Part shown: positions 12,040 to 55,800 of the stretch, piece by piece
Layout of the letters: each line of letters opens with the position of its first letter
How positions within the stretch are numbered: the first letter of the stretch is position 1
NCBI GenBank assembly: GCA_965207855.1
Contig: OZ242310.1
Location: 5,128,151 to 5,192,150, forward strand
Origin: Candidatus Poribacteria bacterium
GTDB lineage: Bacteria; Poribacteria; WGA-4E; WGA-3G
Direction of reading: 5' to 3'
Length of the DNA stretch: 64,000 nt
The notes under the pieces: generated by a model
What the model was told of the DNA's origin: nothing
Seen by the model: only the letters and a program-made list of their open reading frames with translations
The model's database searches: none
Program-made: the position numbers and the translations under genes

Positions 12040-12076
12040 CTACTTTTGACCTACATCTTTTTCGTGAAAGTGAAAA

Positions 12077-23399: not shown

Positions 23400-23421
23400 A
23401 ATGTTACACTGGTGTAACATT
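23400..23421. promoter_or_regulatory. perfect 10-bp-arm inverted repeat (candidate operator) AATGTTACAC-TG-GTGTAACATT
   Basis: Exact reverse-complementary arms; additional half-sites GTGTAACATT at 23433..23442 and 23521..23530 and AGTAACATTTT at about 23137; inside a 700-bp ORF-free region. Confidence 0.5.
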
Positions 23422-23713: not shown

Positions 23714-23959
23714 CTATGGTGCATGCCAGAGGACATCTCCCAGAGAATTTGACATACCTGGCGGACGTTTCCCATAGGTAGTTTCTATAGGTGGGGACTT
23801 ACGTTCCTTGTTGATTCTACGAAGGAAATCCTCAAAGGTATCTATACCAAAGAATTGAAAAGAGGCACGTACCGCTGGTGGAATTGCAAGTATGACGAGA
23901 ATAATAGTGAGTAGAACAAGGCTCTTGGTTAGCGCAATGATTATTTCAGTGTTTTCCAT
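23714..23959 (-). CDS. small hypothetical membrane protein
   Basis: 81 aa; one strong TM helix (LVLLTIILVILAIPP); no RBS checked; weak. Confidence 0.3.
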   Translation of the reverse strand: MENTEIIIALTKSLVLLTIILVILAIPPAVRASFQFFGIDTFEDFLRRINKERKSPPIETTYGKRPPGMSNSLGDVLWHAP

Positions 23960-24290
23960 TTTTTCTCCTTACGCCGAAAAGAGCAGTTATCTAACTCTCC
24001 GGACGTGAACCACAATAGGTTATTCAAACAACATTAGCTAATCTCCTCTTGTTTATTCATTGAGTATTTTAACACAAAGTGCCACAAGAATGCAAACAAA
24101 AAGTTTACGCTACAAAACCTCTACGGGTAATCAACCATCTTTGATAAAAAACGAGGTCTACATGCCTAAAATCTTGTAAGTAGCAACTTGAATCACTGTA
24201 ACAGAATTCTCTCAACTTTCTTTCGCCTGCTCTACAACAGTATCGGCTTCTTGCTGTAGCTGCTTAGCCCGATTGCGGGTATTGAGGAGG

Positions 24291-30884: not shown

Positions 30885-33614
30885 ATGAAAAAATATCTAC
30901 TGAAACTCGAAAATATAACACGTTGGTCTATATGCATCATATCGCTCATCTGTGCAGTGTTGCTACAAGTGCCAGTGCAAGCGCAGCTGACCCCTCCAGA
31001 AGAAGTCCTTGGGTTTCAGGTCGGTGCCGACTATAAAGTGGCAGGATGGCAGACGGTTTCTGATTACATGCGGCACCTCGCCGAGAACTCTGATCGGATT
31101 CTGTTAGAGACCCTCGGTAAAACGACAGAAGGCAACGATTTTCTGATGTTCCTGATTTCCGCGCCGGAAAATCTGGAGAACCTGGCACGTTATCAAGAGA
31201 TTCAGAAACAGATCGCATTGCCACGCGCGCCGATAACAGAAGACGATCGATCGGAATTAGATGCGTTGGCGCAAGCCGGTAAAGCGGTCGTGCTGATTAA
31301 CTGTAATCTGCACTCCACAGAGATTGCCTCATCGCAAATGTCAATGGAATTTGCGTATGAATTTGCGACCACGGACAGTCCACAAATTCAGAAAATTCTT
31401 GAAAATGTGATAATTCTGCTCATCCCATCCGCTAACCCTGACGGTTTGGATATTGTCGTGGATTGGTATAACCGCACGGTCAGGACGCCCTATGAAGGTT
31501 CAGAAATCCCGTGGTTGTATCATAAATACACGGGACACGATAACAATCGCGATTGGTTCATGCTCACACAGATAGAGACGCAACTCCTGACGCGCGTGCT
31601 TTACGAAGAATGGTTTCCCGAAGTCGTCTATGACGTACATGAGATGAGTTATCGCGGTCCTCGGTTTGTAATTCCCCCGTATTTTGAACCCGTTAACCCA
31701 AATATCCCACCGCTCCTACAACGGACACTTTCGCTAATTGGCGCGCAGCTGGCATTCGATTTAACAAGTGAGGGGTTTACAGGCGTGCTTTCAAGTGCTG
31801 TCTACGATACATGGTGGCACGGCGGATTTCGGACAGTCCCGTATCGCCACAATATGGTAGGGATTTTGACGGAAGCGGCACGGGTCGAGATAGCGACCCC
31901 AATCTTCCAACCGCATCACACTTTAAGAGGGTATCGTCGGGGGTTGGACGCATACACGCTTCGTACGAATTTCCCGGAACCGTGGCCCGGAGGGTGGTGG
32001 CGACTGCGAAATATTGTAGAATACGAGAAGGCGGCGGCATTGTCAATTCTTGATTTCGTTGCTGAGCATCGGGTGATGTTGAAGACTAACTTTTACAAGA
32101 TGGGACTTAACGCGAGAACAAAAGGAGAAAATGAACCGCCTCGGGCGTTTCTTATTCCAACGCAGCAGCGCGATATTCATACAACTCTTAAGATGTTAGA
32201 CATTTTGCAACGCGGGGGTGTAGAGATTCATCAAGCAAATGCCCCCTTTACTGCAGATGGTGTAGAATACCCCGCGGAAACTTACGTTGTTTTAATGTCG
32301 CAACCGTTTCGGGCGCACGCGAAGGACCTGCTTGAAGTCCAACGCTACCCGGAACGCCGTCCGTCGCCGGAATCACCACCGGAACGTCCTTATGACATCG
32401 CTGGCTGGACGCTACCTTTACAAATGGGGGTCCGAACGATTGCGGTTGTGCATCCGTTTGAAGCGGATCTAAGTCAGATACCTAACATATCGCGTTCGGA
32501 GTCGTATCCCATCACGTTTTCCCTTTTAGTGGACTCAAGTCTGGTGCCTGTATTGCCACAAGTGGAAGGGAGTCTGGAGGGTGTCCCTGAACCGAAGGGT
32601 TATCTGTTCGAGAATCGAACGAACGCTGAAGCGATTGTCCTCAACCGCCTATTTAATGCGAAATCAGAAGATAATAGCCCGAAGTATACGTTCTATCGAG
32701 CAGATCGAGAAGTAAATAGCGGCGGCAAAGTATTTCCGCGTGGGAGCATTCTGATTAGAACAACAGCACTCCCGTTACAAGAGATGGAAACAATGGAAGC
32801 ACTCGCGTCAGAGTTCGGCATCCGTATTTACGCCGATGAATCCATTGATGAAAAGACCTTAGCTCGGTCGTTTTCAAAGATAGCGGCACCGCGCCTGGGT
32901 CTCTATAAGCCGTGGACGGCAAATATGGATGAAGGGTGGACACGCTGGGTTTTAGATACGCACGAGTTCACCTACAATAGCCTCACGAATGCAGAAATTC
33001 AGGCAGGACATTTGGTGGATCGCTACGACGTGATCATTTTGCCGGATTTCGGTGCTTCCGGTATTCTCAACGGACATGCAACCGGAAAATTACCGCCGGA
33101 ATACGTCGGGGGTATTGGCACAGAAGGCCTGGCGAATTTGCGGGCATTCGTGGAGGACGGCGGCACGCTTATCTGCTTGAATCGTGCGACAGAACTCCCA
33201 TTGGAATACTTTGGGCTTGGTGAAAAAGGTATCGTCAATGTGGTCAAGAAAGCAAATCAACCGAAAGAAGACGCTTTTTTCTGTCCGGGTTCACTCTTAC
33301 GGGTCCGTATAGATACAAGGCATCCGATAGGGTATGGGTTGGATCGGGACATGGCGATCTTCTTTAAATCGGGACCGGTTTTTGACGGTGTGCGTGGGGA
33401 TGTGAAAGCTGTAGCGACGTATCCAGAATTCAATCCGTTGATGAGTGGGTGGCTTGAAGGTGAGAAACGGATTCGGCAGAAGACTGCGCTGCTGGAAACA
33501 TCGCTTGGAGATGGACGTGTGGTCTTGTTCGGTTTCAAACCGCAGCATCGCGGGCAATCCTATGGGACTTTTAAGCTGCTTTTCAATGCGATTTATTATA
33601 GTACCGTGCCGTAA
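30885..33614 (+). CDS. secreted M14-family zinc carboxypeptidase with large C-terminal extension
   Basis: 909 aa; signal peptide; M14 motifs (HSTEIAS; SANPDG; NRDW); about 500-aa C-terminal region of unknown function. Confidence 0.75.
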   Translation: MKKYLLKLENITRWSICIISLICAVLLQVPVQAQLTPPEEVLGFQVGADYKVAGWQTVSDYMRHLAENSDRILLETLGKTTEGNDFLMFLISAPENLENLARYQEIQKQIALPRAPITEDDRSELDALAQAGKAVVLINCNLHSTEIASSQMSMEFAYEFATTDSPQIQKILENVIILLIPSANPDGLDIVVDWYNRTVRTPYEGSEIPWLYHKYTGHDNNRDWFMLTQIETQLLTRVLYEEWFPEVVYDVHEMSYRGPRFVIPPYFEPVNPNIPPLLQRTLSLIGAQLAFDLTSEGFTGVLSSAVYDTWWHGGFRTVPYRHNMVGILTEAARVEIATPIFQPHHTLRGYRRGLDAYTLRTNFPEPWPGGWWRLRNIVEYEKAAALSILDFVAEHRVMLKTNFYKMGLNARTKGENEPPRAFLIPTQQRDIHTTLKMLDILQRGGVEIHQANAPFTADGVEYPAETYVVLMSQPFRAHAKDLLEVQRYPERRPSPESPPERPYDIAGWTLPLQMGVRTIAVVHPFEADLSQIPNISRSESYPITFSLLVDSSLVPVLPQVEGSLEGVPEPKGYLFENRTNAEAIVLNRLFNAKSEDNSPKYTFYRADREVNSGGKVFPRGSILIRTTALPLQEMETMEALASEFGIRIYADESIDEKTLARSFSKIAAPRLGLYKPWTANMDEGWTRWVLDTHEFTYNSLTNAEIQAGHLVDRYDVIILPDFGASGILNGHATGKLPPEYVGGIGTEGLANLRAFVEDGGTLICLNRATELPLEYFGLGEKGIVNVVKKANQPKEDAFFCPGSLLRVRIDTRHPIGYGLDRDMAIFFKSGPVFDGVRGDVKAVATYPEFNPLMSGWLEGEKRIRQKTALLETSLGDGRVVLFGFKPQHRGQSYGTFKLLFNAIYYSTVP

Positions 33615-33712
33615 AAAATACAAGCAGATTAGAGAATAATGGCATATTTTGTATCATACTTTAACTTGCGCGCTGTCAAGCGCGCTTCTTCTAAGGAAAG
33701 GAAATTCTAACG

Positions 33713-34081
33713 ATGGCAGTTACGTTTCATCACGTTCATCTTCGGTGCGAGGACTTGGACGGTTCAGTCAGTTATTATGAAAAGATCTTTGATGGAAAAG
33801 TCTTAGAAACAGTCGATGTTGGCGGGTTAAAAGTTGTCCGTATGGAAGTCGGCGGGGAACGGATATTCCTCTCTCCCAAATTAGGTGATATGGAGGTAGA
33901 AGATACCAGCGGCAATCCGCGCTGGGGGCTCTACCAACTTGCATTCATTGTAGAAAACCTTGACGCGACCGTCACGGAACTCCAGGCGAAAGGTGCAGAA
34001 CTCGACTATCTGAGACCTGAGATTATGCGGGCGTTTTTTAAGGGCCCTGACAACGTTCAGATAGAGCTCATTGAGGTGTAA
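33713..34081 (+). CDS. VOC-family (glyoxalase-like) protein
   Basis: 122 aa; FHHVHLRCEDLDGSVSYYEKIF N-terminal VOC motif. Confidence 0.7.
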   Translation: MAVTFHHVHLRCEDLDGSVSYYEKIFDGKVLETVDVGGLKVVRMEVGGERIFLSPKLGDMEVEDTSGNPRWGLYQLAFIVENLDATVTELQAKGAELDYLRPEIMRAFFKGPDNVQIELIEV

Positions 34082-34213
34082 TCGTTCGCAAAAATTATCC
34101 CCTCGTTCCGACAAATCGTGTTGGGTGAGGGTCCGTGCCTCACCCTTCTCCGTATCCGTCCATAGTGTATTGGTCATTGAAAACTTACCATAACGTGAGT
34201 TGAAAAAAAATTA

Positions 34214-35113
34214 ATGATAAAAAAAGAATTTAGAAACGAAGATCCGCCTGGTAAGATCATTGCCTTTGTATTGTTTCTCGTTTCTCTCTTGGGCGGGAAT
34301 TCGCTCGCTGTTAAAATCAGTTTGCAAGGCATTCCGCCGCTGAAAATGGCATTTCTTCGTTATATATTAGGGACGCTTGCTGTTGGTGGTGTGGGCTTTT
34401 TCCAGGGAATATCGATGCGGTTGCGTTTTGAGGAAGTGCGCCGGTTGTCCGTCGTTGCGGTATTGCACGCATTGCATACCGTTCTGTTGAACATCGGCAC
34501 TGAGTTCACTATCGCTTCTCGCTCAACCATTTTCTTTGCGCTTTATCCAATTTTTACTGTCGTATTCGGGCACTTTTGGCTTCCGGACGATCGGCTCTCT
34601 GTTCGGAAGATATTGGGGATTCTTTCTGCCTTTGGTGGGGTCATTGCAGCCATCGCACCGAACCTACGAGGCGGTGGCACCTTGGAGCACCTCATCGGAG
34701 ACCTGATTGTGACGCTGGCTGGCTGTCTCTTTGGACTCCGCATTACACTCACGAAGGTGTTTGTTCAAGATATTTACCCGCATCGACTCCTCGTCTGGTT
34801 GTTAGGTTTAAACATTCCCTGTTTTCTGGTTTTAAGTTATTTCTTCGAGCGTGGGAAACCGATTGCATTGACGTTGGCAAACGGAGCAGGCATGCTCTAT
34901 CAAGGCTGGATACTCACGGGTTTTTGCTTTTTGACGTTGACCTGGGTGCTAAGAAAATACAAAGCGAGCAAATTGGCAGTCTTGTATTTTGTCATGCCTG
35001 TGTCGGGTGTATTGTTTAGCAACCTGTTTTTAGGGGATGAACTGTCGTTGAGTATATTAGCAGGAACTGTATTGATAGGCGTAGGAATTTATCTTGTAAA
35101 TATGAGGGATTAA
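34214..35113 (+). CDS. DMT-superfamily (EamA-like) transporter
   Basis: 299 aa; about 10 TM helices; duplicated EamA-like halves. Confidence 0.8.
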   Translation: MIKKEFRNEDPPGKIIAFVLFLVSLLGGNSLAVKISLQGIPPLKMAFLRYILGTLAVGGVGFFQGISMRLRFEEVRRLSVVAVLHALHTVLLNIGTEFTIASRSTIFFALYPIFTVVFGHFWLPDDRLSVRKILGILSAFGGVIAAIAPNLRGGGTLEHLIGDLIVTLAGCLFGLRITLTKVFVQDIYPHRLLVWLLGLNIPCFLVLSYFFERGKPIALTLANGAGMLYQGWILTGFCFLTLTWVLRKYKASKLAVLYFVMPVSGVLFSNLFLGDELSLSILAGTVLIGVGIYLVNMRD

Positions 35114-35141
35114 AATTGAAGGATTTCAGTTTAGCACACTT

Positions 35142-36554
35142 TTAAACTTCTTCCTTCCTATAAGCGTCCAATTTGCGGTGTAGGGTTCGGACTCCAATAT
35201 CAAGAATTTTCGCCGCCTCTGTCTTATTTCCACCGGCTTCCGCGAGGGTTTTCTGGATAGCCGCGCGTTCAATTTCTGCCATTGTCATGCCGACCTTGCC
35301 AATGACTTCCTCATCATACACTGCCACGGGTTTGCTGTCTGTCCTTTTTGTCCCTTCTTGGGGTTCCACGGGATTAACGATAGGTAACATTCCATCCTGA
35401 TTGCGATTCTCAAGCACTTTCGCAATTGTCGAAAGTACCTCCAACGTTTTCCTGAGAATGTCGGCTGCGTCATCAACCTCGTTAATCTGCATCCAACTGG
35501 TATCCTCATCAGGAATTAAGGGTGGCATATCATCCCTTGCGGCAGCGGTCGGATCCAGCGATCGGATTGCAGAGAAGATCAGCCCGATAATTGTCTTGTA
35601 AACTGCTATATTTTCTGTGGTAATGGCACTGGTGGTGGGGTCCACGACTTGTAAAGAGGTTCCAGATTGATTCGGAAGCCCGACCTCTCCAGAGATTTCG
35701 GTACCGACAACCTGCGTAGGTGCGAGTTGCGTGCCTGACACTTGAACAGGCAGTGCCGTAATCTGTTCAGATTCCGAATCTATTGGAAAGTCTTTAAGTT
35801 GGAGTTCATCGGTTGTCGCCACAATGATAGCAGACTCAATAGCATTTCTGAGTTGGCGGACGTTACCGTGCCATTCTGCATTTTGGAGATAACCGAGTGC
35901 TTCGGGTGTTATGCCGGTAATTGCTTTTCCATGGTCTTCACTTAATTCGGAGATGAACGCATTAACAAAGAGTGGAATATCCTCGCGTCGGTCGCGCAGG
36001 GGTGGGATGTGGATGCGAAAGAGATTCAACCGATAATAGAGATCTTGTCTAAATTTCCTATCTTTAACGGACTTTGCGAGGTTGATATTCGTTGCGGCGA
36101 TAATTCGGACATCGACTTTTATATTTTTTTCTCCACCGAGTCGGGTGAATTCTTGCGACTCTAAGACCCGCAGAAATTTTACCTGTACTTCGGGCGACAT
36201 TTCGCCGACCTCATCAAGGAAGAGCGTCCCACCGTTTGCTTGCTCAAACACGCCGCGGCGTTGGCTTGACGCGCCTGTAAACGCGCCTCTTTCATGTCCG
36301 AAGAGTTCGCTTTGGAGGAGGTCTTGGTAAAATGCACCGCAGTTGACGGCTTTGAAGGGTCGGTCTTTACGGGGGCTACTTTCGTGTATAGCCTCGGCGA
36401 TGACATCTTTCCCAACACCCGTTTCGCCCGTAATGAGGACAGTCGCTTTCGTGGGTGCGACCTGTTCGACTTGACGCAAAACCGTCCGCATCGGTGCGGA
36501 TTCACCGATAATGCGTCGTGAACTATCGCCGATAACGAGCTTTGGAAGATCCAT
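35142..36554 (-). CDS. sigma54-dependent Fis-family activator-type AAA+ ATPase lacking an N-terminal sensor/receiver domain (PspF-like)
   Basis: Walker A GETGVGKD; sigma54-contact GAFTGA (ERGAFTGA); Walker B LFLDEVGE; C-terminal Fis-type HTH (KTEAAKILDIGVRTLHRKL); about 160-aa low-complexity linker; protein begins directly with the AAA+ domain. Confidence 0.85.
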   Translation of the reverse strand: MDLPKLVIGDSSRRIIGESAPMRTVLRQVEQVAPTKATVLITGETGVGKDVIAEAIHESSPRKDRPFKAVNCGAFYQDLLQSELFGHERGAFTGASSQRRGVFEQANGGTLFLDEVGEMSPEVQVKFLRVLESQEFTRLGGEKNIKVDVRIIAATNINLAKSVKDRKFRQDLYYRLNLFRIHIPPLRDRREDIPLFVNAFISELSEDHGKAITGITPEALGYLQNAEWHGNVRQLRNAIESAIIVATTDELQLKDFPIDSESEQITALPVQVSGTQLAPTQVVGTEISGEVGLPNQSGTSLQVVDPTTSAITTENIAVYKTIIGLIFSAIRSLDPTAAARDDMPPLIPDEDTSWMQINEVDDAADILRKTLEVLSTIAKVLENRNQDGMLPIVNPVEPQEGTKRTDSKPVAVYDEEVIGKVGMTMAEIERAAIQKTLAEAGGNKTEAAKILDIGVRTLHRKLDAYRKEEV

Positions 36555-36595
36555 CTTCTTTTGTCCTTAGCCTAACCTGATACTGCTTTTTCTTA

Positions 36596-37660
36596 TCATT
36601 TTTGCTTGAGATGCTTCTCTACGAGTAAATCAATGAGTGGTCGATAAGTTGAGTTGTGCAAATGTTCTTTGTACCAGTCCACATAGGTACCATCTTTTAG
36701 ATGTTCTTGAATCATTCGATTTTCTTCCAAAAGCGTCCATAGATTATGGGTAGCTCGATTACAAAAGCCAAAAGTTCTATTTTTTTTTAGCCCTTCCAAA
36801 CCATACTCCTGACAAGCGGGACATTGGCAATTTTCCAATTTTTTTAATTCTTGTGGATTTGGCACAGGGACCTTCCAATTGCCAAGGCTAGCCACAGAAC
36901 GATCAGCAATGCCAGGTAACTGTACAAGTCCCCGTGCGGCGCGAACGCGCCAGCCTGCTGAATCTACTGAATCCATTCCTAACAAAGACGCGATATGCAG
37001 TGTAGCTGTTCCGCCCACTCCAAAGAGATGTAAATTCTGATCAGCAAACACGTTGCGGATCTGATGAATTTTGTCCAGCAAATCTTCACTGGACATAGAT
37101 TTAGGTGCACGCAAAAGATTAGGTACAATTCCGCCAATAGCAAAAATTGGTTTTTCTCGGAGTTGTGCATTCGCTTCAAACTGACAAAGATATTTGTCTA
37201 AGTGACGACTAATATGAAGGACCGGCACATACTCATCATGAGAATACTTCTGATTAACCGCCATCGTTTGTTGAAGACACTTAAGCTGATCCTTATCGTT
37301 CATATCCGGCATAGGAATGTAGTCTTGAGGAACTGCATACCAATTAGGCTTTGCTTGTTCCACAAATTCTTCGTACTCGAGGCGTGGTACTTCAACCCCA
37401 TTTTGCGAAAATTTGAACGCGCCGTTATCCAAGTAGATCTCCATATGTTCTGGAACGCCAAGACTAGTGTGTAACCCCATTTCCATGGCGCGGCAACGGC
37501 GAGTAGGACTTTGATGAAAATACACATAGGAAACCATTACAGCACGTAACTTTTCCAAATAGTAAGGTGAATCAGGATTCCATACCAGCGGCTTAATACT
37601 GCCAAGATTCAGCCCCGCAACGATTTCCATACCTAATCTCCTCTGATTATCATAAGACAC
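36596..37660 (-). CDS. TGT-family transglycosylase-like protein, divergent second paralog (DpdA-like candidate)
   Basis: 354 aa; zinc site CQCPACQEY...THNLW parallels Tgt CTCYTCQNF...H; LDNGAFKF in place of Tgt [10 protein letters not shown]; FGVGGTATL like Tgt GVG motif; canonical tgt is already present at 537..1712. Confidence 0.7.
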   Translation of the reverse strand: MSYDNQRRLGMEIVAGLNLGSIKPLVWNPDSPYYLEKLRAVMVSYVYFHQSPTRRCRAMEMGLHTSLGVPEHMEIYLDNGAFKFSQNGVEVPRLEYEEFVEQAKPNWYAVPQDYIPMPDMNDKDQLKCLQQTMAVNQKYSHDEYVPVLHISRHLDKYLCQFEANAQLREKPIFAIGGIVPNLLRAPKSMSSEDLLDKIHQIRNVFADQNLHLFGVGGTATLHIASLLGMDSVDSAGWRVRAARGLVQLPGIADRSVASLGNWKVPVPNPQELKKLENCQCPACQEYGLEGLKKNRTFGFCNRATHNLWTLLEENRMIQEHLKDGTYVDWYKEHLHNSTYRPLIDLLVEKHLKQK

Positions 37661-37666
37661 CGGTCC

Positions 37667-39439
37667 TCACCTATTGCTGGTTTGATTGCGAACACCTTCA
37701 AGGTACTTAAAAGCATTAATTTCCTCTCGCTCCGCTTGAGAATTAGGTTTTTTCATTTTCACTAAAATGGGAAAATTTACCATCTGACCCGATAATAGTG
37801 CCTCGCCTACCTCAAGATTCGGAAGTAAGTTTGCTTCCTCCTCACCTAACGACTCAACGACCCTTTTCACAAAAATCTGATCAGCTGGGTTTACCATTCG
37901 CATGATAATATAAGAGTTGCATTGAGAAAGAGTGGTCTCGTCAAGTCGCGAAGGCCGTTGACTGATTACAACCAATCCGATGTTGAATTTCCTTCCTTCC
38001 TGAGCAATCTGCTTAGTTATGGTGATGGACTGTTGTTCGGCAGAAGAAGTACCGCGCCCAGGAACGAAATTGTGCGCTTCCTCAAGTACTAATAAAAAAG
38101 GCCATTGAAGTTTTTTGGCAACTTTGGCCTCAAATAATTCTTCCGCAATAATACTGTAAATTGTTGCCTGGAAATCTCCAGTATAGCCTGCCATGGACAC
38201 AATTGAAATTTTACCATCCTGAACTAGCTCCTTACGATCTTGAGGCATAGGTTTCGAGTCACCCGCAATCTCTTGATTGATTCTTTCCATTCTAAGAAGT
38301 TGGGATGCTGCCCTCCGAGCTCTTTTGTATATTCCCTCTAGAGTTCCAGGTATGTGTCCTTGCAAAGGTAGATTCCTCCAACAGATCTGACTTAGATACT
38401 CAAAATCGTCACGATTACCACTACGGGCATCTCTTATTGATTGAACAGCAGCATCCGCTATATTGGCAATTAGCCAAAGATCGGGTTTAATACCATTTTG
38501 ATGAATCCAATTATCATTAAGTCTATTAGCTAGCCAGTCTATCCTTTCATGTTCTTCAGCTTCGTAAAATCTCCTGGTTGCAGCAAATAAATCACCGAAT
38601 AAGGTCTCCATTGGAGGTGTTAGGTTGTATCCAAGATTGTTAACAATCTGTGCCACTGTATCTGCTTCTTGCTCAAAAATCGGGATGGTAGCGTAGTACC
38701 GATCAACCCGCTCATGATCTTGAAACTGTTCACTATCTGCTAGTCCTGAGTAATCCCCATGCGGATCGAAAACAACCATTGGATATTGTTTATCCGCCAA
38801 TTGTTCAATAATCCGCCGGGCTGCCCAACTCTTTCCAGCCCCTGTCATTGCAAGGATAGCCAAATGGCGAGTAACTATGGCGTGTCCATCCACTTTCACA
38901 TCAACCTTAGAACGGTTAGAAAGAGTAGCAATATCTAGTGCCCTAGTTTGATCCTCTGCTAAATTTCCCACTAAAATACGTTCTAGATCTTTTGAACCTG
39001 GTCCATAAGCACTAGTAGCTGGTTTAGGAGGATATCGCAAACTTTCAAGTTTACCGGATTCTTTATTTTTTGACTCACCGGACTCTTCACTTTCTAACTC
39101 AGCGGATTCTTCCTTTCCTAATTGTTCATATCCCAGTACTTGGCATACGGCTGATACCATCTCACGACTTAGAGAAAGTACAGTTTCCAGAGGATCAGTC
39201 TGTGTTTCTGCCAGTTCGTGCCCCGCTTCAGCTGGGAAGAGAGGGTTGATACGTTCTATCCTTTGGACCTTTGCCCAAACCCTTATTTCTTTTAACTCTT
39301 CGCTATCTCCCAACTCATTTAACATAGCATCCACTGCGATGATATCCTGTTCACGGATCGCTTCGGGCGTTACAGCAAGACGAAATTCTTTACTTGTACT
39401 TTCACCAACAAGTGTCCCAACGATTCTTTCTTTTTCCAT
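37667..39439 (-). CDS. HerA-like (DUF87/FtsK-HerA superfamily) ATPase
   Basis: 590 aa; Walker A LAMTGAGKS; LLVLEEAHNF Walker B; GRKFNIGLVVISQRPSRLDETTLSQCNSYIIMRMVNPADQ block characteristic of HerA/DUF87 ATPases; N-terminal barrel-like region. Confidence 0.75.
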   Translation of the reverse strand: MEKERIVGTLVGESTSKEFRLAVTPEAIREQDIIAVDAMLNELGDSEELKEIRVWAKVQRIERINPLFPAEAGHELAETQTDPLETVLSLSREMVSAVCQVLGYEQLGKEESAELESEESGESKNKESGKLESLRYPPKPATSAYGPGSKDLERILVGNLAEDQTRALDIATLSNRSKVDVKVDGHAIVTRHLAILAMTGAGKSWAARRIIEQLADKQYPMVVFDPHGDYSGLADSEQFQDHERVDRYYATIPIFEQEADTVAQIVNNLGYNLTPPMETLFGDLFAATRRFYEAEEHERIDWLANRLNDNWIHQNGIKPDLWLIANIADAAVQSIRDARSGNRDDFEYLSQICWRNLPLQGHIPGTLEGIYKRARRAASQLLRMERINQEIAGDSKPMPQDRKELVQDGKISIVSMAGYTGDFQATIYSIIAEELFEAKVAKKLQWPFLLVLEEAHNFVPGRGTSSAEQQSITITKQIAQEGRKFNIGLVVISQRPSRLDETTLSQCNSYIIMRMVNPADQIFVKRVVESLGEEEANLLPNLEVGEALLSGQMVNFPILVKMKKPNSQAEREEINAFKYLEGVRNQTSNR

Positions 39440-39441
39440 GA

Positions 39442-41001
39442 TTACCTACCTTCTGCAGTTGGCCGAAAGATCCAATCTCGGTGTTTCATATAAATCGCCT
39501 GCACCAACACCTTTCGCATATCTTCATCGCTAACTTCACCCTTCTGCAGGCTCACCCCTAGTGTATAACGAATCATTTTGTCGTACGCTTTTGTCATCCA
39601 GCTAGGCACATGGGCAAACTTATCCACGATATCCAAACCGACGGGAAATCCATAATTAGGCAAAAGACGCGAATATAAATATACACGCCTCACAGCTTCT
39701 TTCACTTGGTCTTCTCCAAGTTTAGAAAAAACCTCAACCCTAATGGGTTCAGTATTTTCGTTAACCTGAACATAGGTGCCCTTTATGGAAGGAAAACCAA
39801 ACTGCCTGCCATCTCTCAAGCAGGAAAAATCCACTTGCGAACTTTCTGATTCATTTGGAAGTCGAATTTGACCTGACCCCAAACCGATAGTCGACTTGTT
39901 TACTTTCCAAGACTCAGAATATTCTCCAGTATTAAGAAGCCAAGCCAAGAGAAGATTATCTGTATAACCTAACCTATCCATCAAATTTTTAGGAGAAGTA
40001 AGGTCAGAAAGACCAAACATGTCATTGAAATAGTTCTGTTTTCCCTTTTCACGTAGACTACGAAAAACACGTTTAAGTAATATCGCCTCAGAGAAATTCC
40101 GCGACTTTCCTCGTTCCACTACTCCCGCAATGATAGGACGAGGTTCCCTATTTAGTGCCACAGAAATCAATTTTCTATAGAGAAATGCAATCCATGACAA
40201 CGGTTCAAAAAGCCGAAGATCTGCCCATTCATCGGACCTCCCGCCAGCCATATCTGGATAAATATCAAGACGGGCTTCTTTAAGAAAATCTTCCTTCAAC
40301 TGATTTGCTTGTTCTTTATCACCCGAATAGTGTTTTAGAAACAGGTTAATATCCGCTTCAGTAAAAGGTGTATGACCTGCATAAGCGTCCATCAAATAAA
40401 CCAGCGGACCTTGGAACAATAGGACTCTTATATCTGGATTGCGGTTCAACGCTGAAAGTCCACCCAGTAACTCAGCAGTAATGCGGACAATATCTGTGAA
40501 GTCCTCCCGCTCCTTACTGCCTCCTTCAAGATCTCCGAAGACTACCGGGTAATAGCCAAAATTCTCCCGCTCTGCCAGATTCCCTTCACCGACACGTACT
40601 GCATAAGATCCTACGCGCAACAAGATAGGGACTTGAGATAATTCTGACTGACCAATTCCGCCATCAATAAAACTAACTAGTTCGTTTTGAAACTCCTCCC
40701 AAACTGTATTTTTGACTGAAAACGTCTGAAGGATAGGATTTTCTCGCGTTCCTCTATTAGTCTGATCTATAGCCTGACGCAAATGAGTTATAAAACAAGC
40801 TGTATTACGATAATAGTTATCTCGCAAATTTTCAGCTACTAACAGCGATTTTTCCATTATCTTCATCATTAACTGAGGCTGACGAAGAAGATCCTCTTGT
40901 ACATCGTTCTCGGGCAATCGCTCATTTACCTCCGATTGGTCATCTTGTGTATCTCTATCAGGAGTACCCGTATCAATAGATCTCGTATTTAATTTCACCA
41001 T
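39442..41001 (-). CDS. NurA-like nuclease candidate (HerA partner), function unproven
   Basis: Start reassigned to ATG 41001 (MVKLNTRS), preceded by a strong GGAGG RBS and 7 nt after the upstream stop; FIDGGIGQSE resembles the NurA N-terminal Asp motif; stop abuts the HerA start. Confidence 0.4.
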   Translation of the reverse strand: MVKLNTRSIDTGTPDRDTQDDQSEVNERLPENDVQEDLLRQPQLMMKIMEKSLLVAENLRDNYYRNTACFITHLRQAIDQTNRGTRENPILQTFSVKNTVWEEFQNELVSFIDGGIGQSELSQVPILLRVGSYAVRVGEGNLAERENFGYYPVVFGDLEGGSKEREDFTDIVRITAELLGGLSALNRNPDIRVLLFQGPLVYLMDAYAGHTPFTEADINLFLKHYSGDKEQANQLKEDFLKEARLDIYPDMAGGRSDEWADLRLFEPLSWIAFLYRKLISVALNREPRPIIAGVVERGKSRNFSEAILLKRVFRSLREKGKQNYFNDMFGLSDLTSPKNLMDRLGYTDNLLLAWLLNTGEYSESWKVNKSTIGLGSGQIRLPNESESSQVDFSCLRDGRQFGFPSIKGTYVQVNENTEPIRVEVFSKLGEDQVKEAVRRVYLYSRLLPNYGFPVGLDIVDKFAHVPSWMTKAYDKMIRYTLGVSLQKGEVSDEDMRKVLVQAIYMKHRDWIFRPTAEGR

Positions 41002-41008
41002 TATCCTC

Positions 41009-41812
41009 CTATCCTTTTGAACAAATTTCAACCCCAAGTTGCTGCAAAACCCGTTTTGCTTCGTTTGTGTGAAAAGCACTCACAGGTAAACCAGTTAATT
41101 GGTTAACTACCCACTTGAGAGGGACTTGTTTATTTTCTATCTGCACATACCACATCTGGTATTTGGGAATATTGCGTTCTTTTGCAAGTGCAACATTTAT
41201 TCTCTCCATTATTTGTTCGGGAGTTAGTACAATTTCAATGCCCCGAAGAGATGCCCGACCTTGTTTAACAACCTCCGTATGATTATCGGGAGGTAGTGAT
41301 ACACTCTTACGTAGCCAGCTGTGAAGTTCTGCCAATTTGCATCCCATCGATCCTTGAGAAACGGTCACATTGAGATTAGTGGAAGTTACCGATTTATACC
41401 CATCTAATACCCTCAAATAGTCTCTCCCCATGCTTATGAAAAACTCTTGGTATTGTTTGCTATTTAAAATTTGATCAAGTTGGTTCAGAGTCGGTTTTTG
41501 CAATTCTTTAACTCGTTGCGGTGTCATTCGATGATCATAGTTAGGAATTCGTTCACCATCCGAAATCAATCCAAATCTTGCTGATAAAATATACACATCA
41601 AGTGATTGTTTCCCAGATGGGTGTGCACGCAGGAACTTACTCATCACCCGAAATGGCGGTCCATCATAGCGTTTTAAGGCGGGTAGTAAACCTTGATCGG
41701 AGCGTTTCGCCCTGGAACACGAGAGAATCAGCAAGCGTAGATTTGAAGAAGTTTCTTTTTTACACATTGTATTTACTATTCCAAGTTTACTATTCCAACC
41801 CGTTATAAACAT
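41009..41812 (-). CDS. hypothetical protein with N-terminal LLILSCSRAKR motif (DUF328/YaaA-like start), operonic with NurA-like/HerA/TGT-like genes
   Basis: ORF in track; true start may be the internal Met (MCKKE, about 41767); stop 7 nt upstream of the NurA-like start. Confidence 0.5.
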   Translation of the reverse strand: MFITGWNSKLGIVNTMCKKETSSNLRLLILSCSRAKRSDQGLLPALKRYDGPPFRVMSKFLRAHPSGKQSLDVYILSARFGLISDGERIPNYDHRMTPQRVKELQKPTLNQLDQILNSKQYQEFFISMGRDYLRVLDGYKSVTSTNLNVTVSQGSMGCKLAELHSWLRKSVSLPPDNHTEVVKQGRASLRGIEIVLTPEQIMERINVALAKERNIPKYQMWYVQIENKQVPLKWVVNQLTGLPVSAFHTNEAKRVLQQLGVEICSKG

Positions 41813-41920
41813 GTCGCCCCGAAATCAACGGTATGAATGCCATATGGCATTCCCCGGGGACTTGGTGGAGGGGATGTCTATTTTTCTATAGACATATCGC
41901 CCCGCTGGGACTGTCCTCAG
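41812..41920. repeat. composite REP-like repeat (same family as 21361..21470)
   Basis: TCGCCCCGAAATCAACGGTATGAATGCCATATGGCATTCCCCGGGG ... TATAGACATATCGCCCCGCTGGGACTGTCC. Confidence 0.75.
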
Positions 41921-41977
41921 TGATATTGTAACGACTTTTTCTATGAGGTATTTCAAGTAAACAGAATCGTGGAATAA

Positions 41978-42003
41978 GTCGCGAGCACAGCTCGCTCCTA
42001 CAG
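41978..42003. repeat. GCGAGC hairpin box with CTCCTACAG tail (copy 2)
   Basis: GTCGCGAGCACAGCTCGCTCCTACAG. Confidence 0.7.
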
Positions 42004-42073
42004 CAAAAAGCTGGAATTCGGGAATACCTCCTACGAGAAAACTAAACGCTCTTACTGTCTTACTAAGTCTTCG

Positions 42074-42817
42074 TTATCGATTTTGTATAATCTCAAGTAA
42101 TTGTTGCGGGTCTTGTTTGACTTGCTCAAAGACCTGAAAGCCTTCACTACATGCCGCTTCACACAGTTTTCTCAAGACGACTCCCTTTATCGACCAATTC
42201 GTGGCACGGATGGCTTTTGCCAAATTTCGTCCTGTCTCAATAACGTGGACATTGGACAAACTCTCATCAACGACACGCCTATGGCTCGGTGCGAGTAGGA
42301 AAATCAGGGGTGCTGACCGTTCAATCTCAAAGACGCGTTGTAGGGATACAATATCTTCTTGCCTCAAGAGCGAGAAAACGAGGTCGTAGCGTTCAATTAA
42401 AGCAGCTATGGACTCAGGAACGCCGGTCTCGCCGAACTCTAAGACCTCAGCGTCGTGAAGGGGTGCCATATCAAAAGGAATGATAGTGTCGTCCTCGTTA
42501 ACAGGCGTTTTTCTTTCGTCAACACGACACGCATACCACGGAAAATAAAGATCGAGCGTCGTCTCACCATACCCTTCGTGTCCGCGAATTTGTTTTAATC
42601 CGTGGCGCAATTGCGTATGCATGGGACCCGTGAACATCTCTCCAGCGGGTGCGGTGTAGTCTCTATCTTCGTGATACCACCCCTCGGCATTGTAACCGCA
42701 GAGTTCTTTTATTCTCGCCTTAAGGCGTTCCGGTGAAACGGTATCCTCACGCTGAAGAGGGTTATCGGGTTTATATTTTTGTCCGGTTGTGTAAGGACTC
42801 AAGATCAATATTTTCAT
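42074..42817 (-). CDS. hypothetical protein with N-terminal MKILILSPYTTGQK motif; flanked on both sides by REP-like repeats
   Basis: 247 aa ORF; N-terminal motif related to the start of the 41009..41812 protein; no recognisable catalytic motif. Confidence 0.5.
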   Translation of the reverse strand: MKILILSPYTTGQKYKPDNPLQREDTVSPERLKARIKELCGYNAEGWYHEDRDYTAPAGEMFTGPMHTQLRHGLKQIRGHEGYGETTLDLYFPWYACRVDERKTPVNEDDTIIPFDMAPLHDAEVLEFGETGVPESIAALIERYDLVFSLLRQEDIVSLQRVFEIERSAPLIFLLAPSHRRVVDESLSNVHVIETGRNLAKAIRATNWSIKGVVLRKLCEAACSEGFQVFEQVKQDPQQLLEIIQNR

Positions 42818-42968
42818 GTGTGAATAGTCATAAGTTAATAGTTATAAGTTATAAGTTAAGGACAAGAGGCTCTTTAACTTCAGGACGGACACAATTTTGG
42901 TTAGATGGAGATCTTTGAAAAACACAGACGTTTGGGTGGCACGGGTTGGGAAACCCAACCCCTACGCA

Positions 42969-43102
42969 GGTTTGCGGCGTACTCGCCCCGGGGAATGCCA
43001 TAAGGCATTCATACCCCGGTTCATGCCACACGGCATGAATACCGTTGATTTAAAGCCTTTATAGGCTTTATACCGTTGATTCTGATTCATGCGACGTGCA
43101 TC
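42969..43102. repeat. REP-like dispersed hairpin repeat, inverted copy of 5617..5748
   Basis: GGTTTGCGGCGTACTCGCCCCGG...GAATGCCATAAGGCATTC...CATGCCACACGGCATG...AAAGCCTTTATAGGCTTT...TTGATTCTGATTCATGCGACGTGCATC matches the reverse complement of 5617..5748. Confidence 0.8.
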
Positions 43103-51768: not shown

Positions 51769-52605
51769 TTAACGTTCTAACTTTACGCTCGCCCAAACCG
51801 TTGTTAAACGTCCTTTTGGCGAGACAGGCGTGAACCCAAAGAGCCTACCGAGTCCTTTGTCCATGATCTCATTGATGTCGGCTTCGCTTAAAGCGGTATT
51901 GAAGACAGCGACATCGTCCATGAGTCCCCACCCGGGTCGCTGGTCGGGCATCCCGCCAATGTTGAGGGCTTGTCCTGTTAATCCAAAAACGCCACCGGTA
52001 TTGGCTTGCGCATCAACCTTGCCGTCTACATAGGCTATCATCTTCTTACTATCGTATGTGAAAGCGATGTGGTGCCACTGGTCATCGTTGACGAGCGTTG
52101 GACCGGAGACCCATGAGGGTGCGAGCTGGCCACTGCCAATCTCAACCTTCCCGTGCCCACCACCTCTTCCGGGTCCAAAGATGTTCAACAGGTTGGTATA
52201 CATGAAGTTAATGATGGCATGGTCGTCGTTACAACAACCACCCAAAACGACTTTATCCTTTTTCTTCAGTTTCACCCACGTCGTTGCGGTGTATTCCTCA
52301 GCACAACTGTCCAAACTTTTTGAAGTCTCAACCCTTGCAATCTGGAAGTCGTTATCACCGGAGAGACTCAACGCCTTATCAAATTTCCCATCGTCGACCA
52401 ATTCGGCACCTTTAAGCAATTCCGCATCATTGCCGTTATCGGTAGAATCGGGAGACATATCGTTTTTGACTTCATCAAAGAGCCATACGCCAACGATGTT
52501 TTTGGTATCAATTGCCGCATCGCTCACGGGTGTAAGCATCAAGGAGATAACCATTAAGCAAATTATCCCGAAAATAGATAAGTTTCGCACAGCATTACCC
52601 TCCAT
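51769..52605 (-). CDS. secreted LamG/concanavalin-A-like lectin domain protein
   Basis: 278 aa; signal peptide; LamG-type sandwich signature (DDQWHHIAFTYD, LNIGG, DDVAVFNTALSEADINEIM). Confidence 0.55.
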   Translation of the reverse strand: MEGNAVRNLSIFGIICLMVISLMLTPVSDAAIDTKNIVGVWLFDEVKNDMSPDSTDNGNDAELLKGAELVDDGKFDKALSLSGDNDFQIARVETSKSLDSCAEEYTATTWVKLKKKDKVVLGGCCNDDHAIINFMYTNLLNIFGPGRGGGHGKVEIGSGQLAPSWVSGPTLVNDDQWHHIAFTYDSKKMIAYVDGKVDAQANTGGVFGLTGQALNIGGMPDQRPGWGLMDDVAVFNTALSEADINEIMDKGLGRLFGFTPVSPKGRLTTVWASVKLER

Positions 52606-52890
52606 AATTGGAATTGCTGGACATCCTATCTCAATAATATGAAAAAGTCAAAGGAAAAAAGTATGCAGCCTTCCGCTGAATCTGGTAGAATAGAGAAAAC
52701 ACGGAAATAAAAAATAGTAGCGTTACAAAAATCTGTGTAAACATAAAGACTCAATTTGTCGTTTTTAATCAAGAATCAATTTTAAATTACCTCCCTATCA
52801 CTGCGAACGGTCGTTTTTTATAAGGCCTTATCATGCCGCGCTCCTTAATATTCACAGAAACGCAGTAAATAGGACAAACCGAGAGTATAC

Positions 52891-55800
52891 GTGCAGATAC
52901 ATTTTTTGCTAAAATTTGTAGACCAGTTAACCTTAAAAGCGCGAAATCTGCTGTTAAAAACTGGACTTATCCTTATCATTGTAATCTCTGCAATGTCTGA
53001 AGTCGCTGTGAGTCGTATCGCTGAAGAAGAAACCGAATCGACAGAAGAAACGCAAACAGAGGCTACAAACCCCCGCCAACGCGCCGCCACTCCTGATACC
53101 GAGGTATCCGAGACCCCTGAGGAACATCAGCATTACACTGAATTCGGCCTGTCCAACCGCAACCCCTTTGATAGTGGTAGTGCGTCAAAACACTTCATCT
53201 GGCAGAATCGCGATCAGCAAGAATGGCAGGCACTGGATACAGCGCAAGAAACTGAAGACCCAGAGCCGACAACCGATAGCGATCGCCTCATACAACCCTA
53301 CTTAGACAGTCTCCGAAGATGGCGGTATCCCCCAGACATGACCGACCTCAGCAAACTCTACAATTGGAAACCGAAGCCGAAACGGGACGAAGAAGGTATC
53401 GCGCTCCCCATGGATTCCAATCTCAAGATTACAGGCTTACAATCCGTAACGATAGAGGCAAATAAGACTCACTACTTCGGAGAAGGGGATCTGAACCGAT
53501 ACGGCGGATACGGTTATGGTGGCGGATACGGGAGTTACTCATCGGGACTCGACTTAGGGCTCACATCGTCGTACGGTTATGAGGATTTCGGCTATAGCAG
53601 CGGCGGATTTGGGGGTGGATACGGTTCAGGGCTTGGAAGTGGATATAGCAGTTACGGAGGCGGCTATAGTAGCGGATATGGCAGCGGGTATGGGGGATAT
53701 GGTGGGTATGGGAGTGGCGGTGTTCCGCGAGCAACAGGCTTTAACCTACGACAGATTCAGCAGTTCGGTCTCCACGGTCGTGTCGGACAACGGACGCATA
53801 TTGCCGTAGATTACAGTGCCGGTGGCAGCAGTTTCGGCAGCGGTGGCTACGGCGGCTACGGTGGTGGCTATGGCGGCTACGGCGGTGGGTATGGTATAGG
53901 GGGTGCGAAGGAGCAGAAGATTAAAATCTGGTATGAAGGTACCCCGGATAGTATTATAAAAACGTTCTCTTTCGGCGACATCACACTCAGCTTACCGAAT
54001 ACCCGTTTTTTGAATATCAATCGGAACTTATTCGGGCTTGAAGGCGTTTTTGAATGGAAAAACGCACGTCTGACAGCGTTCGGTTCCCGGAGCAAGGGAA
54101 TACGCGAGGTACGGACTTTCCGAGGACAATCGCGGCGCGCAGGTGGAGGCTACGGGTACGGCCCCCGTGGCATTCAGATTCAAGACACCAACTATGTTAA
54201 AAGCAGGTTCTACCACATCCATAGAGATGAAGATGGTGCCCTTCATGAGGCATATCTGCCCATAAAAGCAGGGAGCGAAGAAATTTACATCGATGATGGT
54301 GTTGTGGGCAACAACCAAGGCGGTAAAAGGACGAGTCGCGGCTATTTCAACCCACAGTTCACCGGGCAAGACTACAATATAGACTATGAAACGGGTGAGA
54401 TAGAATTTCTCTCGCCGATTTCGGCGAGTTACACCATCGTTGTGGCGTACGAATATCTGGGTAGTGGTGGCGGCAGTGTTGGAAACCCCGAAGAAGTCTT
54501 TGTCGACGAAAACGGAGATGGGACCCTTGATGAGGAAGGGGAAGAAGTCGGCTACGTTGTGCTAAAAGAGAAGGGTTTCCGTGGGACAGAGGCGACCCAC
54601 GTCTACAGTCTCGGCAACCGAAACATTAATCCGCGCGACTTCACACTCACAATCATTCGCCAAGGACAAAGTGATACGTTCCAAACGAGTAGCGGTTCCG
54701 CCGCTTACATCGAAATTTTCGGTTTGGACCAAAACGGCGATGGTAATATCGATGCCCAGTTCATAGACTACGATAGAGGTATTCTTCGTTTTCCAACAAC
54801 CTACGGCAGCCATCCGTTTCAAATCACAGATCCGAACCACCCCTACTATGCCTACCGTGATACGCTCAGCAACAACGCCATCTATCTTGAAGGTGTCCGA
54901 ACAGATGCCCAAATCTATACGATTATCGCCGATTACGCGTATCAATCAGAGACCTACAACGTCGGCTTATTCGTCATTCCAAACAGTGAAACCGTTCGCC
55001 TCAACGGTCGTCTCCTGACCCGCGACACCGATTATATGATGCTGTATGAGGTTGGCACGCTCCGTTTTTTCAGGCAGCTCGATGAGTTTGATGAAATTGT
55101 TGTGGAATTTGAAAAGACACCGTTCGGCGGTTCATCACAACAGGCTGTCGTCGGTGCCTGGTTAGAGTACACACATAAACCGAAGCCTAAATCGGGAAGA
55201 GAACAGAGCCTTGAGGATAGATTTAACCGATTAGGCGGTATGCAAACGATGGACCCGACGCTTGGCACCGGAACCCAAGACGCTTTCGGTGAAACTTTTT
55301 CGAGAGGCAGAAGCGGTGGCTTCGGAAGGAGTGGTTTCGGCGGCGGTTTTGGACGTAGCGGATTTGGTAGCGGCTTCGGGGGCAGTGGCTTTGGGGGCGG
55401 TTACAGCAGTTACGGCGGTCTCGGCGGTAGGTCTCGGAGTTACGGCAGCTACGGCAGCAGGATGAACTACTTCAATCCTGTTTTCCAAAAAGGATTCGCG
55501 TTATCAACGGGTTATATTCTGAATACCGGCCAAAAACCGGCGGAAATACCAGATGTCAACAGCGTTCCCAACCGTTTACAAGCGGTCAACGTAAACACCA
55601 GTTTCGGCAGAGAATTTAATATTGCAGGCATCTTCAATCTATTACCGTTCATTAATATGCGCAACTTCCCACTTTCCCTCGACTTTAGTGGGGAAGCCGC
55701 TTACTCACATAATAACCCGAATAGTATAGGGGTTGCACTCATTGATAGTATGGAGGGTGCGAAGGAAGCGACAACGGTGCCCACGCTGAAATACAACTGG

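Follow-up and report, generated by a model that had tools for sequence, protein, structure and literature searches.

We analysed a 64,000-nucleotide stretch of the genome of a Candidatus Poribacteria bacterium (assembly GCA_965207855.1, contig OZ242310.1, positions 5,128,151–5,192,150 of the forward strand; hereafter the window) and found, at 36568–42083 on the minus strand, a cassette of four genes in the order DUF6884-NurA-HerA-TGT. These four genes form a conserved and insertable functional unit. We judge it somewhat better than an even bet (a probability of roughly 0.55) that the cassette was acquired horizontally and encodes a compact restriction-modification-like system built on 7-deazaguanine, a reading that rests on sequence comparison. 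The presence of 7-deazaguanine in DNA has been documented for a single large bacterial system (Dpd) and for phages. In the system we propose, the TGT-like enzyme would replace guanine residues of DNA by a 7-deazaguanine base. This base is most likely preQ0 and would be supplied by the queuosine pathway of the host or by import. The DUF6884 protein, via a conserved Cys-x3-Lys motif, would either convert the inserted base in DNA or bind and read it, while the HerA translocase and the NurA nuclease would form a destructive arm that degrades DNA without the mark, and in this way self could be discriminated from non-self. HerA may also power base insertion, as an ATP-driven step like that of DpdB in Dpd.

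A four-gene cassette inserted between two resident genes

Six co-directional open reading frames (ORFs), all on the minus strand, lie between 35142 and 42817, at the coordinates and with the gaps given in a preliminary description of this DNA. The first gene of the cassette encodes the DUF6884 protein (41009–41812, a 267-residue ORF), followed by a NurA-family nuclease (39442–41079, a 545-residue ORF), a HerA-type hexameric DNA translocase ATPase (37667–39439, 590 residues) and, last, a TGT-superfamily transglycosylase consisting of the catalytic domain only (36596–37660, a 354-residue ORF). A gene for a protein of 247 residues (42074–42817) precedes the cassette and a gene for a sigma54 activator (35142–36554) follows it. 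The assignments to TGT, HerA, NurA and a sensor-less sigma54 activator made in the preliminary description were all upheld by Pfam, and the two proteins it had left as unknowns could be placed as DUF6884 and as a degenerate DUF6884 paralogue (the 247-residue protein). Alignment with homologues favours shorter starts for DUF6884 (M16 at 41767, giving 252 residues), for NurA (M27 at 41001, giving ~519 residues) and for the TGT-like protein (M11, an ATG at 37630, giving 344 residues as in homologue P0001). These starts reproduce the gaps of 2–7 nt described earlier: 7 nt between DUF6884 and NurA(M27), 2 nt between NurA and HerA, and 6 nt between HerA and TGT, with a further 41 nt separating TGT from the sigma54 activator gene.

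Two close Poribacteria relatives (loci L085 and L086) have the gene order secD-secF-247aa-sigma54 and lack the cassette, at nucleotide identities to the window of ~91–93% and 84–87%, respectively, as measured by blastn. Window positions 42084–42879 correspond to L086 9156–9962 and positions 35127–36567 to L086 9988–11419, leaving the two flanks only 25 nt apart in the cassette-free genome. Alignment of the junctions shows that the extra DNA starts just past the stop codon of the 247-residue gene and ends ~20 nt ahead of the start codon of the sigma54 activator gene. Because the flanks map 25 nt apart and the extra DNA falls in that spacer, the inserted or deleted segment can be placed at about 36568–42083, a length of ~5.5 kb that comprises the four cassette genes and their 5′ intergenic region. 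The 247-residue and sigma54 genes are resident, since the relatives without the cassette have them 25 nt apart with nothing in between. Thus, the near-contiguous run of minus-strand genes previously taken for an operon of five to six genes is real, but the conserved, insertable unit within it has only four.

The composition of the four middle genes differs from that of their surroundings, with a GC content of 42.1% compared to 48.1% in the flanks. The AT-rich character proposed earlier for the segment is therefore genuine, although the dip is smaller than was first estimated.

The TGT-like protein is a separate branch of the family

The last gene of the cassette encodes a clear member of the TGT superfamily (Pfam PF01702, 45.6 bits against a cutoff of 26.3, E 6.8e-12), which scores slightly below the cutoff of the NCBIfam superfamily model tgt_general (41.7 versus 47.6 bits) and well short of the models for individual enzymes. 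Of the NCBIfam models for individual enzymes, that for TgtA (TIGR00432), which acts on tRNA in archaea, fits best, with 55.9 bits where the cutoff is 350, compared to DpdA at 24.2 bits against 200 and the bacterial Tgt (TIGR00430) at 18.7 bits against 306.75. The PADLOC model for DpdA finds only a weak match (E 1.7e-6) extending over just 63 residues. Among solved structures the best relative is the archaeosine TGT 1iq8 (sequence E 8e-12, Foldseek E 5e-11, 22% identity), and the best 50 matches of the structure model in a Foldseek search of the PDB are TGT-family enzymes without exception, DpdA (7ui4) appearing at rank 33. The protein is a separate branch of the family, nearest to the catalytic domain of ArcTGT, with bacterial TGTs next in structural similarity, rather than to DpdA.

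The residues expected of an active enzyme are conserved. The catalytic and base-binding aspartates (D78, D113 and D230/D233) and a CxCxxC…H zinc site formed by C278, C280, C283 and H305 do not vary among 16 homologues and align to the ArcTGT motifs VDSGSF, LDIP, GVDLFDS and CSCPVC…H, the correspondence to known catalytic residues being read off the alignment with 1iq8. The protein (344–354 residues) aligns to residues 48–328 of the 582-residue ArcTGT and is without the C-terminal C1–C3/PUA domains that bind tRNA. On this basis, the enzyme looks active, as predicted from its conserved residues, and does not look tRNA-directed.

The nearest solved relative is nonetheless a tRNA enzyme, some homologues are named '7-cyano-7-deazaguanine tRNA-ribosyltransferase' in their source records, and ArcS and DUF5591 act on archaeal tRNA (PMC10516641), all of which would suit a second queuosine- or archaeosine-type pathway in which the enzyme modifies tRNA or another RNA and its adjacency to HerA and NurA is coincidental or regulatory. 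We regard this as highly improbable. The four-gene order, with just a few nucleotides between the genes, is kept in about a dozen phyla, all three of the partner modules found next to the gene (see below) are DNA translocase and nuclease machines, the tRNA-binding domains are missing, and the scores lie far below the equivalog cutoffs of the tRNA enzymes. Moreover, the genome already holds a canonical Tgt, encoded at 537–1712 (TIGR00430, 527 bits against a cutoff of 307), as had been pointed out in the preliminary description. Its argument that the extra enzyme does not serve queuosine exchange in tRNA is strengthened by these results, which also place the protein outside the tRNA-specific clade; no housekeeping neighbours are common to its homologues. 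We infer that the substrate is more probably DNA than RNA.

The DUF6884 protein is related to YaaA, DpdC and the catalytic core of ArcS

The first protein of the cassette matches Pfam PF21818 (DUF6884) with 42.1 bits against a cutoff of 30 (E 1.2e-10). It has an N-terminal domain resembling YaaA and the ArcS core, with the CxxxK and LSAxxG motifs described for DUF6884 (PMC11701544), and a conserved C-terminal region of ~80 residues; the structure model (pLDDT 82) likewise has two domains, and its fold is nearest to those of AF0587 and YaaA. C32, K36, S77 and G81 are invariant, and both C32-x3-K36 and L76-S77-A-x-x-G81 are conserved. All 20 of the family members searched match Pfam YaaA (best E 9e-6) and 8 of the 20 match DUF5591 (best E 6e-4), the domain that forms the catalytic core of the archaeosine synthase ArcS and has the motif PC-x3-KPY (PMC10516641). 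A Cys-x3-Lys core is common to DUF6884 and ArcS. In PADLOC, the protein matches PDC-M57A (E 8e-8) and, weakly, the DpdC models (E 2e-4), the latter indicating homology and not orthology. DUF6884 is therefore related by fold and profile to YaaA and DpdC and to the ArcS catalytic core.

Two of these relatives have an activity on 7-deazaguanine bases in DNA. DpdC, which is YaaA-like, converts preQ0 in DNA to ADG in a system whose transglycosylase DpdA requires the ATPase DpdB (PMC10164549), and the phage protein ArcS2, a DUF5591 core alone, acts with DpdA2 to convert dPreQ0 in DNA to dG+ (PMC10516641). A comparable conversion, or alternatively recognition of the inserted base, would be a plausible role for the Cys-x3-Lys motif of the cassette protein.

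HerA and NurA form a putative destructive arm

The assignment of the 590-residue ATPase to HerA, already suggested by the preliminary description, is secure. The protein matches Pfam DUF87 (85.9 bits against a cutoff of 23.2, E 5.8e-24), PADLOC HerA (E 2.4e-61) and the PDB HerA chains 8xau, 9x1l and 4d2i, the last of which is Sulfolobus-type, at E 5e-33 to 1e-28. NCBIfam HerA models are found at E 1e-45 to 1e-32, every one below its equivalog cutoff, and the 'anti-phage-associated HerA' models at E 3e-42. A match to Deinococcus HerA (7f6d) is weak (E 0.005). The Walker A (MTGAGKS) and Walker B (LLVLEEAH) motifs can be read directly in the translation.

The adjacent nuclease matches Pfam NurA (PF09376) at 28.5 bits against a cutoff of 21, over model positions 3–252 of 254. 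An FIDGG motif and many acidic residues are invariant across 15 homologues. No match was obtained in the PDB by sequence or by profile.

The cassette is widespread, accessory and modular

In a collection of 185,579 species, each represented by a single genome, 99 stretches matched the TGT-like protein. This sparse occurrence, together with the absence of the cassette from the same site in close relatives at 87–93% nucleotide identity, indicates that it is not part of the core genome. A large protein database holds 1,436 relatives of the protein, of which the best 120 are all at least 59% identical, and there are 503 relatives among 1.84 billion cluster representatives. The family is nearly absent from phages: none of 50,697 phage genomes carries it, and it is present on 1 of 2.9 million viral contigs. 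A phage origin of the cassette was rejected on the strength of that single viral-contig match and the lack of any in phage genomes. The contig in question (L084, IMGVR_UViG_3300016466_000585, 2060–9047) has no HerA, NurA or DUF6884 gene; its TGT relative is preceded by seven tandem ORFs of ~230 residues, two of them PAPS_reduct-like (PP-loop), and the locus may represent a different TGT-based modification cluster.

We fetched 80 loci and clustered their ORFs, recognising the TGT gene in 73. The arrangement seen in the window, with the four genes all on one strand in the order DUF6884-NurA-HerA-TGT (variant A), recurs in 36 of these 73 loci, to which the window itself is added; they are drawn from about a dozen phyla which include Poribacteria, Latescibacterota, Chloroflexota, Cyanobacteriota, Bacteroidota, Acidobacteriota, Planctomycetota, Deinococcota and Nitrospirota. 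A second arrangement (variant B, 19 loci) has the order DUF6884-HerA′-X539-TGT, in which X539 is a protein of ~530 residues with no family match. The third (variant C, 10 loci including mobilizable cyanobacterial plasmids) contains a cluster that encodes, besides two unknown proteins, a sigma70-like protein, an IrrE/CapP-like protease, a HerA-like ATPase, SbcD and an SbcC/Rad50-like protein. The IrrE-like protein matches CapP, a regulator of CBASS defence, at E 3e-17. For the plasmid locus L087 we checked that this cluster stands between a DUF6884 head and a TGT tail, an arrangement that partial matches suggest for L037 and L055 as well. In L036 and L062 the cluster has the opposite orientation with respect to TGT. 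Neither X539 of variant B nor the variant-C protein c12 looks like a NurA homologue (hhalign probability <1%, no family matches).

The plasmid locus (L087/L055, from Aulosira laxa NIES-50 = Tolypothrix tenuis PCC 7101) is a nine-gene variant C occupying positions 610–12086 of a 40-kb mobilizable plasmid, in the order DUF6884, sigma70-like, unknown, IrrE/CapP-like protease, unknown, HerA-like ATPase, SbcD, SbcC, TGT. Its SbcC resembles LmuB in PADLOC (E 5e-37), and in the one plasmid record found the nine genes are annotated as hypothetical except for the SbcD-like one, a 'putative exonuclease'.

The nearest neighbours of each TGT track the phylum of the host and not the variant; for example, one pair of TGT proteins from variants A and B is 88% identical within Latescibacterota, another 79% within Poribacteria (B versus A) and a third 77% within cyanobacteria. 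The two variants also share a chromosomal context in Poribacteria, where both are inserted in exactly the spacer between the 247-residue and sigma54 genes, and separately share another in Latescibacterota. Because the TGT follows phylum while these contexts are shared, we conclude that the ATPase/nuclease module has been exchanged repeatedly between a constant DUF6884 and a constant TGT.

In 22 of 23 variant-A loci, GC content is lower in the cassette than in the flanking DNA, by a mean of 7.5 points and by as much as 18. The cassette is an accessory element that has been spread by horizontal transfer. A survey of the flanks found 156 Pfam families among 118 flanking proteins, and no housekeeping neighbours in common. 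Recurrent neighbours of the Meth_synt_2-like (Latescibacterota), Uma2, ParA, GATase and GXGXG types were considered as parts of the system and rejected as lineage-local context. Three near-identical Latescibacterota contigs (L081–L083, 11044–14017) differ by an EcoRV endonuclease and methyltransferase pair situated just after the cassette, with AbiEii nearby on the upstream side. In the same lineage (that of L005) TGT and a MetE-like (Meth_synt_2) gene overlap at the stop codon of TGT, and homologues of the MetE-like gene follow TGT in L007 and L008.

Genes for preQ0 supply adjoin the cassette

At 12 loci from three phyla, the cassette has a source of preQ0 next to it, in the form of queC, queD or a queuosine-precursor transporter. 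The genes HNH-queD-queC-DUF6884-NurA-HerA-TGT all lie on one strand in Adhaeribacter aerolatus NBRC 106133 (L056), in a Cyclobacteriaceae genome (L022) queC is found 1.6 kb upstream of the cassette, and in a variant-C locus of Rubrobacteraceae (L048) it is found 46 nt after TGT. Nine Chloroflexota loci, of both variants A and B, have, adjoining the cassette, a queuosine-precursor transporter that scores 132 bits with TIGR00697 (cutoff 51), three of them also carrying a DUF366 gene there. This last gene (Pfam E 2e-61; L015 1016–2332, and also in L028 and L047) stands directly before the transporter gene and the cassette, and DUF366 may be a new player in 7-deazaguanine salvage; we found no literature on it.

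The preliminary description had seen a resemblance to Dpd-type 7-deazaguanine modification of DNA, and this gains support from the supply genes at the 12 loci and from the kinship of DUF6884 to YaaA, DpdC and ArcS, while both the modification of DNA and a role in defence are what we infer from that evidence. None of the three results that would have spoken against the earlier reading was obtained, the 354-residue protein falling outside the tRNA-specific clade, the 590-residue ATPase proving to be HerA and the cassette lying outside the core genome. As for the preQ0 genes that it recommended looking for, they occur beside the cassette at these other loci, but there are none among the ten window ORFs scanned.

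Immunity, repair or attack

A number of observations weigh against a modification-based defence system. The structure model of the TGT-like protein is of moderate quality (pLDDT 70, pTM 0.73), no PADLOC model matches NurA and that for DpdA matches the TGT-like protein only weakly, and no preQ0 gene lies beside the cassette in the window. The flanks of the cassette hold mostly ordinary metabolic genes and few restriction, Abi or transposase genes, so the defence-island signal is weak. NurA-HerA acts from DNA ends, and it is not obvious how a base mark would control it. Finally, HerA-NurA and the HerA-SbcCD of variant C are classical machines for the resection of double-strand breaks, and both YaaA and the DUF6884 member YfjM have been linked to DNA damage (PMC11701544); repair would fit the same genes.

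The cassette might accordingly be a transferable module for DNA repair or damage tolerance, in which TGT would remove or exchange damaged guanine, DUF6884 would recognise the lesion or abasic site and HerA-NurA would resect the break, conferring stress resistance as opposed to immunity. HerA-NurA is described as a resection machine in archaea and Deinococcus (PMC9960219, PMC12977600), the partners of this TGT and DUF6884 in variant C are SbcD/SbcC-like proteins and an IrrE-type protease, YaaA is a DNA-binding protein of oxidative stress, YfjM binds abasic or RNA-base lesions (PMC11701544), and most of the flanking genes have nothing to do with defence. We nevertheless think this interpretation unlikely. 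The linkage to queC, queD and the queuosine-precursor transporter points to the insertion of 7-deazaguanine, for which repair has no need, and extreme patchiness, low GC content, plasmid carriage and the in-place swapping of nuclease modules are typical of conflict systems, in keeping with the match of the IrrE-like protein to a CBASS regulator.

The accessory and modular character of the cassette is also compatible with a form of defence that does not involve self-marking. Here, TGT would attack invading DNA by excising guanine or inserting deazaguanine, producing lesions or covalent intermediates that DUF6884 would sense and HerA-NurA would degrade. Such a scheme would suit a cassette with no obvious specificity subunit or sensor, and it could account for the entry of NurA-HerA, which needs a nick or end that base excision might supply. 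However, it offers no way to spare the host chromosome, the linkage to preQ0 genes suggests a steady supply of a base for insertion, and the TGT enzymes of Dpd and the phage DpdA proteins mark the DNA of their owner (PMC10164549, PMC10516641). For these reasons, we consider it distinctly improbable.

Comparison with known systems

The proposed modification system can be compared most directly with Dpd (DpdA/DpdB/DpdC plus the restriction proteins DpdD–K, on a genomic island of Salmonella Montevideo). Both combine a TGT transglycosylase, a YaaA-like protein (DpdC or DUF6884) and an ATPase; both are patchy and island-borne, with modification joined to a nuclease or motor arm; and both draw, as proposed for the cassette, on preQ0 from the queuosine pathway. 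The differences are nonetheless substantial. The cassette TGT comes from another branch, near the ArcTGT catalytic domain, and scores far below the cutoff of the DpdA equivalog, DUF6884 matches the DpdC models only at the level given above (E 2e-4), and the cassette is without the ParB-like DpdB and the DpdD–K genes, no other Dpd component being matched in PADLOC. Its destructive arm is HerA-NurA, and it has four genes compared to about a dozen. The cassette is thus no member of the Dpd group, however similar its proposed mode of action.

The 7-deazaguanine modules of phages (DpdA1–4 with ArcS2, Gat-QueC and QueF, among others; PMC10516641) similarly pair a TGT DNA transglycosylase with a small Cys-x3-Lys relative of the ArcS core that converts preQ0 (a conversion which for DUF6884 is proposed), and in both cases queC and queD genes are sometimes linked. 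In contrast to these modules, the cassette family is nearly absent from phages and invariably comes with an ATPase and nuclease module, which argues that the cassette is not a simple anti-restriction device.

As in SIR2-HerA and DUF4297-HerA, a HerA hexameric ATPase and an effector are encoded together in a small mobile operon. In the cassette, however, the partner is NurA, SIR2 and DUF4297 domains being absent from it and from its variants, and the TGT plus DUF6884 module is an addition which those systems do not have. The NurA-HerA resection complex of archaea and Deinococcus is made from the same two families, also encoded side by side. The cassette pair differs from it in being located between DUF6884 and TGT, in being mobile, low in GC and patchy, and in sequence: its NurA of ~500 residues has no sequence-level match to a solved NurA, and its HerA matches Deinococcus HerA (7f6d) only weakly.

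The BREX-related capture (BRC) loci reported in 2026 (PMC12839542) likewise combine a HerA/FtsK translocase with a TGT-family protein and are predicted to serve in defence; there too, TGT is proposed to place 7-deazaguanine marks (PMC12839542). BRC is built on PglZ, DUF6079/BrxC, a STAND NTPase, DUF4007 and GNAT, with TGT in a subset of the loci only; its authors report no DpdC-like protein, and NurA is unmentioned in the text of the paper (PMC12839542). None of the defining BRC components occurs in the cassette or among its recurrent neighbours.

We found no description of the DUF6884-NurA-HerA-TGT combination in the full-text literature, although older papers could hold an earlier mention; the preliminary description, too, had known of no combination of a TGT-like protein with HerA and NurA. 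It is possible, at what we would put as a little under even odds, that the cassette enzyme represents a third independent TGT lineage, after bacterial DpdA and phage DpdA1–4, which writes 7-deazaguanine in DNA, with DUF6884 as the missing link between YaaA/DpdC and ArcS finishing or reading the mark and a plug-in ATPase-nuclease arm destroying unmarked DNA.

Resident neighbours of the cassette

The 247-residue protein encoded upstream has no match in Pfam, PADLOC or NCBIfam. It is related to the cassette DUF6884 family by hhalign (probability 84%, E 8e-6) and clusters with that family via intermediate Poribacteria paralogues, its motifs having been lost (CxxxK is changed to YxxxQ and LSAxxG is replaced). 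We therefore rejected the idea that it is an independent unknown in favour of a degenerate DUF6884 paralogue, resident and outside the mobile cassette. The gene is present in one to three tandem copies in Poribacteria, being duplicated in L001, L009 and L085, and in cassette-free Poribacteria (L085, L086) it forms a conserved adjacent pair, 25 nt apart, with the PspF-like sigma54 gene.

The sigma54 activator is itself PspF-like, with Sigma54_activat at residues 15–182, a lid after the AAA+ domain, a linker of 160 residues and HTH_8 at residues 425–465. Since the AAA+ domain begins at residue 15, the earlier statement that the protein lacks an N-terminal sensor domain is correct. Orthologues in the best 120 homologue clusters listed, one of them source-labelled Candidatus Poribacteria, are 75–96% identical throughout, compared to 80% for the closest homologue of the TGT-like protein. 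No match to a −24/−12 sigma54 promoter is found upstream of either DUF6884 or the 247-residue gene, and across the window such matches occur at the level of chance (53 found versus 57 expected). The activator was consequently rejected as a component of the cassette, there being no promoter upstream and the gene being a core Poribacteria gene that persists without the cassette.

A REP-like palindromic element with the core GAATGCCATAnGGCATTC occurs at 41835–41852, 42993–43010 and 62660–62677, three copies in 64 kb where none is expected by chance. Longer arms extend over 41822–41859, in the leader upstream of DUF6884, and over 42986–43051, on either side of the 247-residue gene. The preliminary description had the segment bracketed by these repeats, which is not borne out: two copies sit at the upstream end, around the 247-residue gene, with none at the 35-kb end, and REP elements were for that reason, and given the third copy at 62660, rejected as boundaries of the cassette.

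Elsewhere in the window, a second insertion or deletion relative to L086 is found at 33608–35126, between the sigma54 activator gene and an M14 peptidase gene. In the window it contains a glyoxalase-like gene (33713–34081) and an EamA-type transporter gene (34214–35113), both absent in L086, and in L085 the corresponding position is occupied by different genes, one of them Uma2. Two more dips in GC content, to 40.4% and 42.3%, are seen at 23001–24000 and 52001–53000, respectively, and an ORF of 2,247 residues occupies 52891–59634.

Implications

If the proposed function is correct, this would be the first case in which an archaeal-type HerA-NurA resection machine serves as the restriction arm of a modification-based immunity, and it would reveal a way in which a processive nuclease is governed by a base mark. 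A four-gene, widely transferred and easily cloned system would also provide a simpler model for the retargeting of a TGT from tRNA to DNA. Cultured carriers exist, among them Adhaeribacter aerolatus NBRC 106133, several PCC, LEGE and NIES cyanobacteria and a mobilizable plasmid, and the prediction is therefore directly testable. The three HerA-based nuclease modules that have been swapped in place between a constant DUF6884 and a constant TGT constitute a natural experiment in the assembly of defence systems. Finally, the proposed activity would give a function to the large DUF6884 family, including YfjM of B. subtilis, and would join YaaA, DpdC and the ArcS catalytic core as one superfamily acting on bases carried in nucleic acids.

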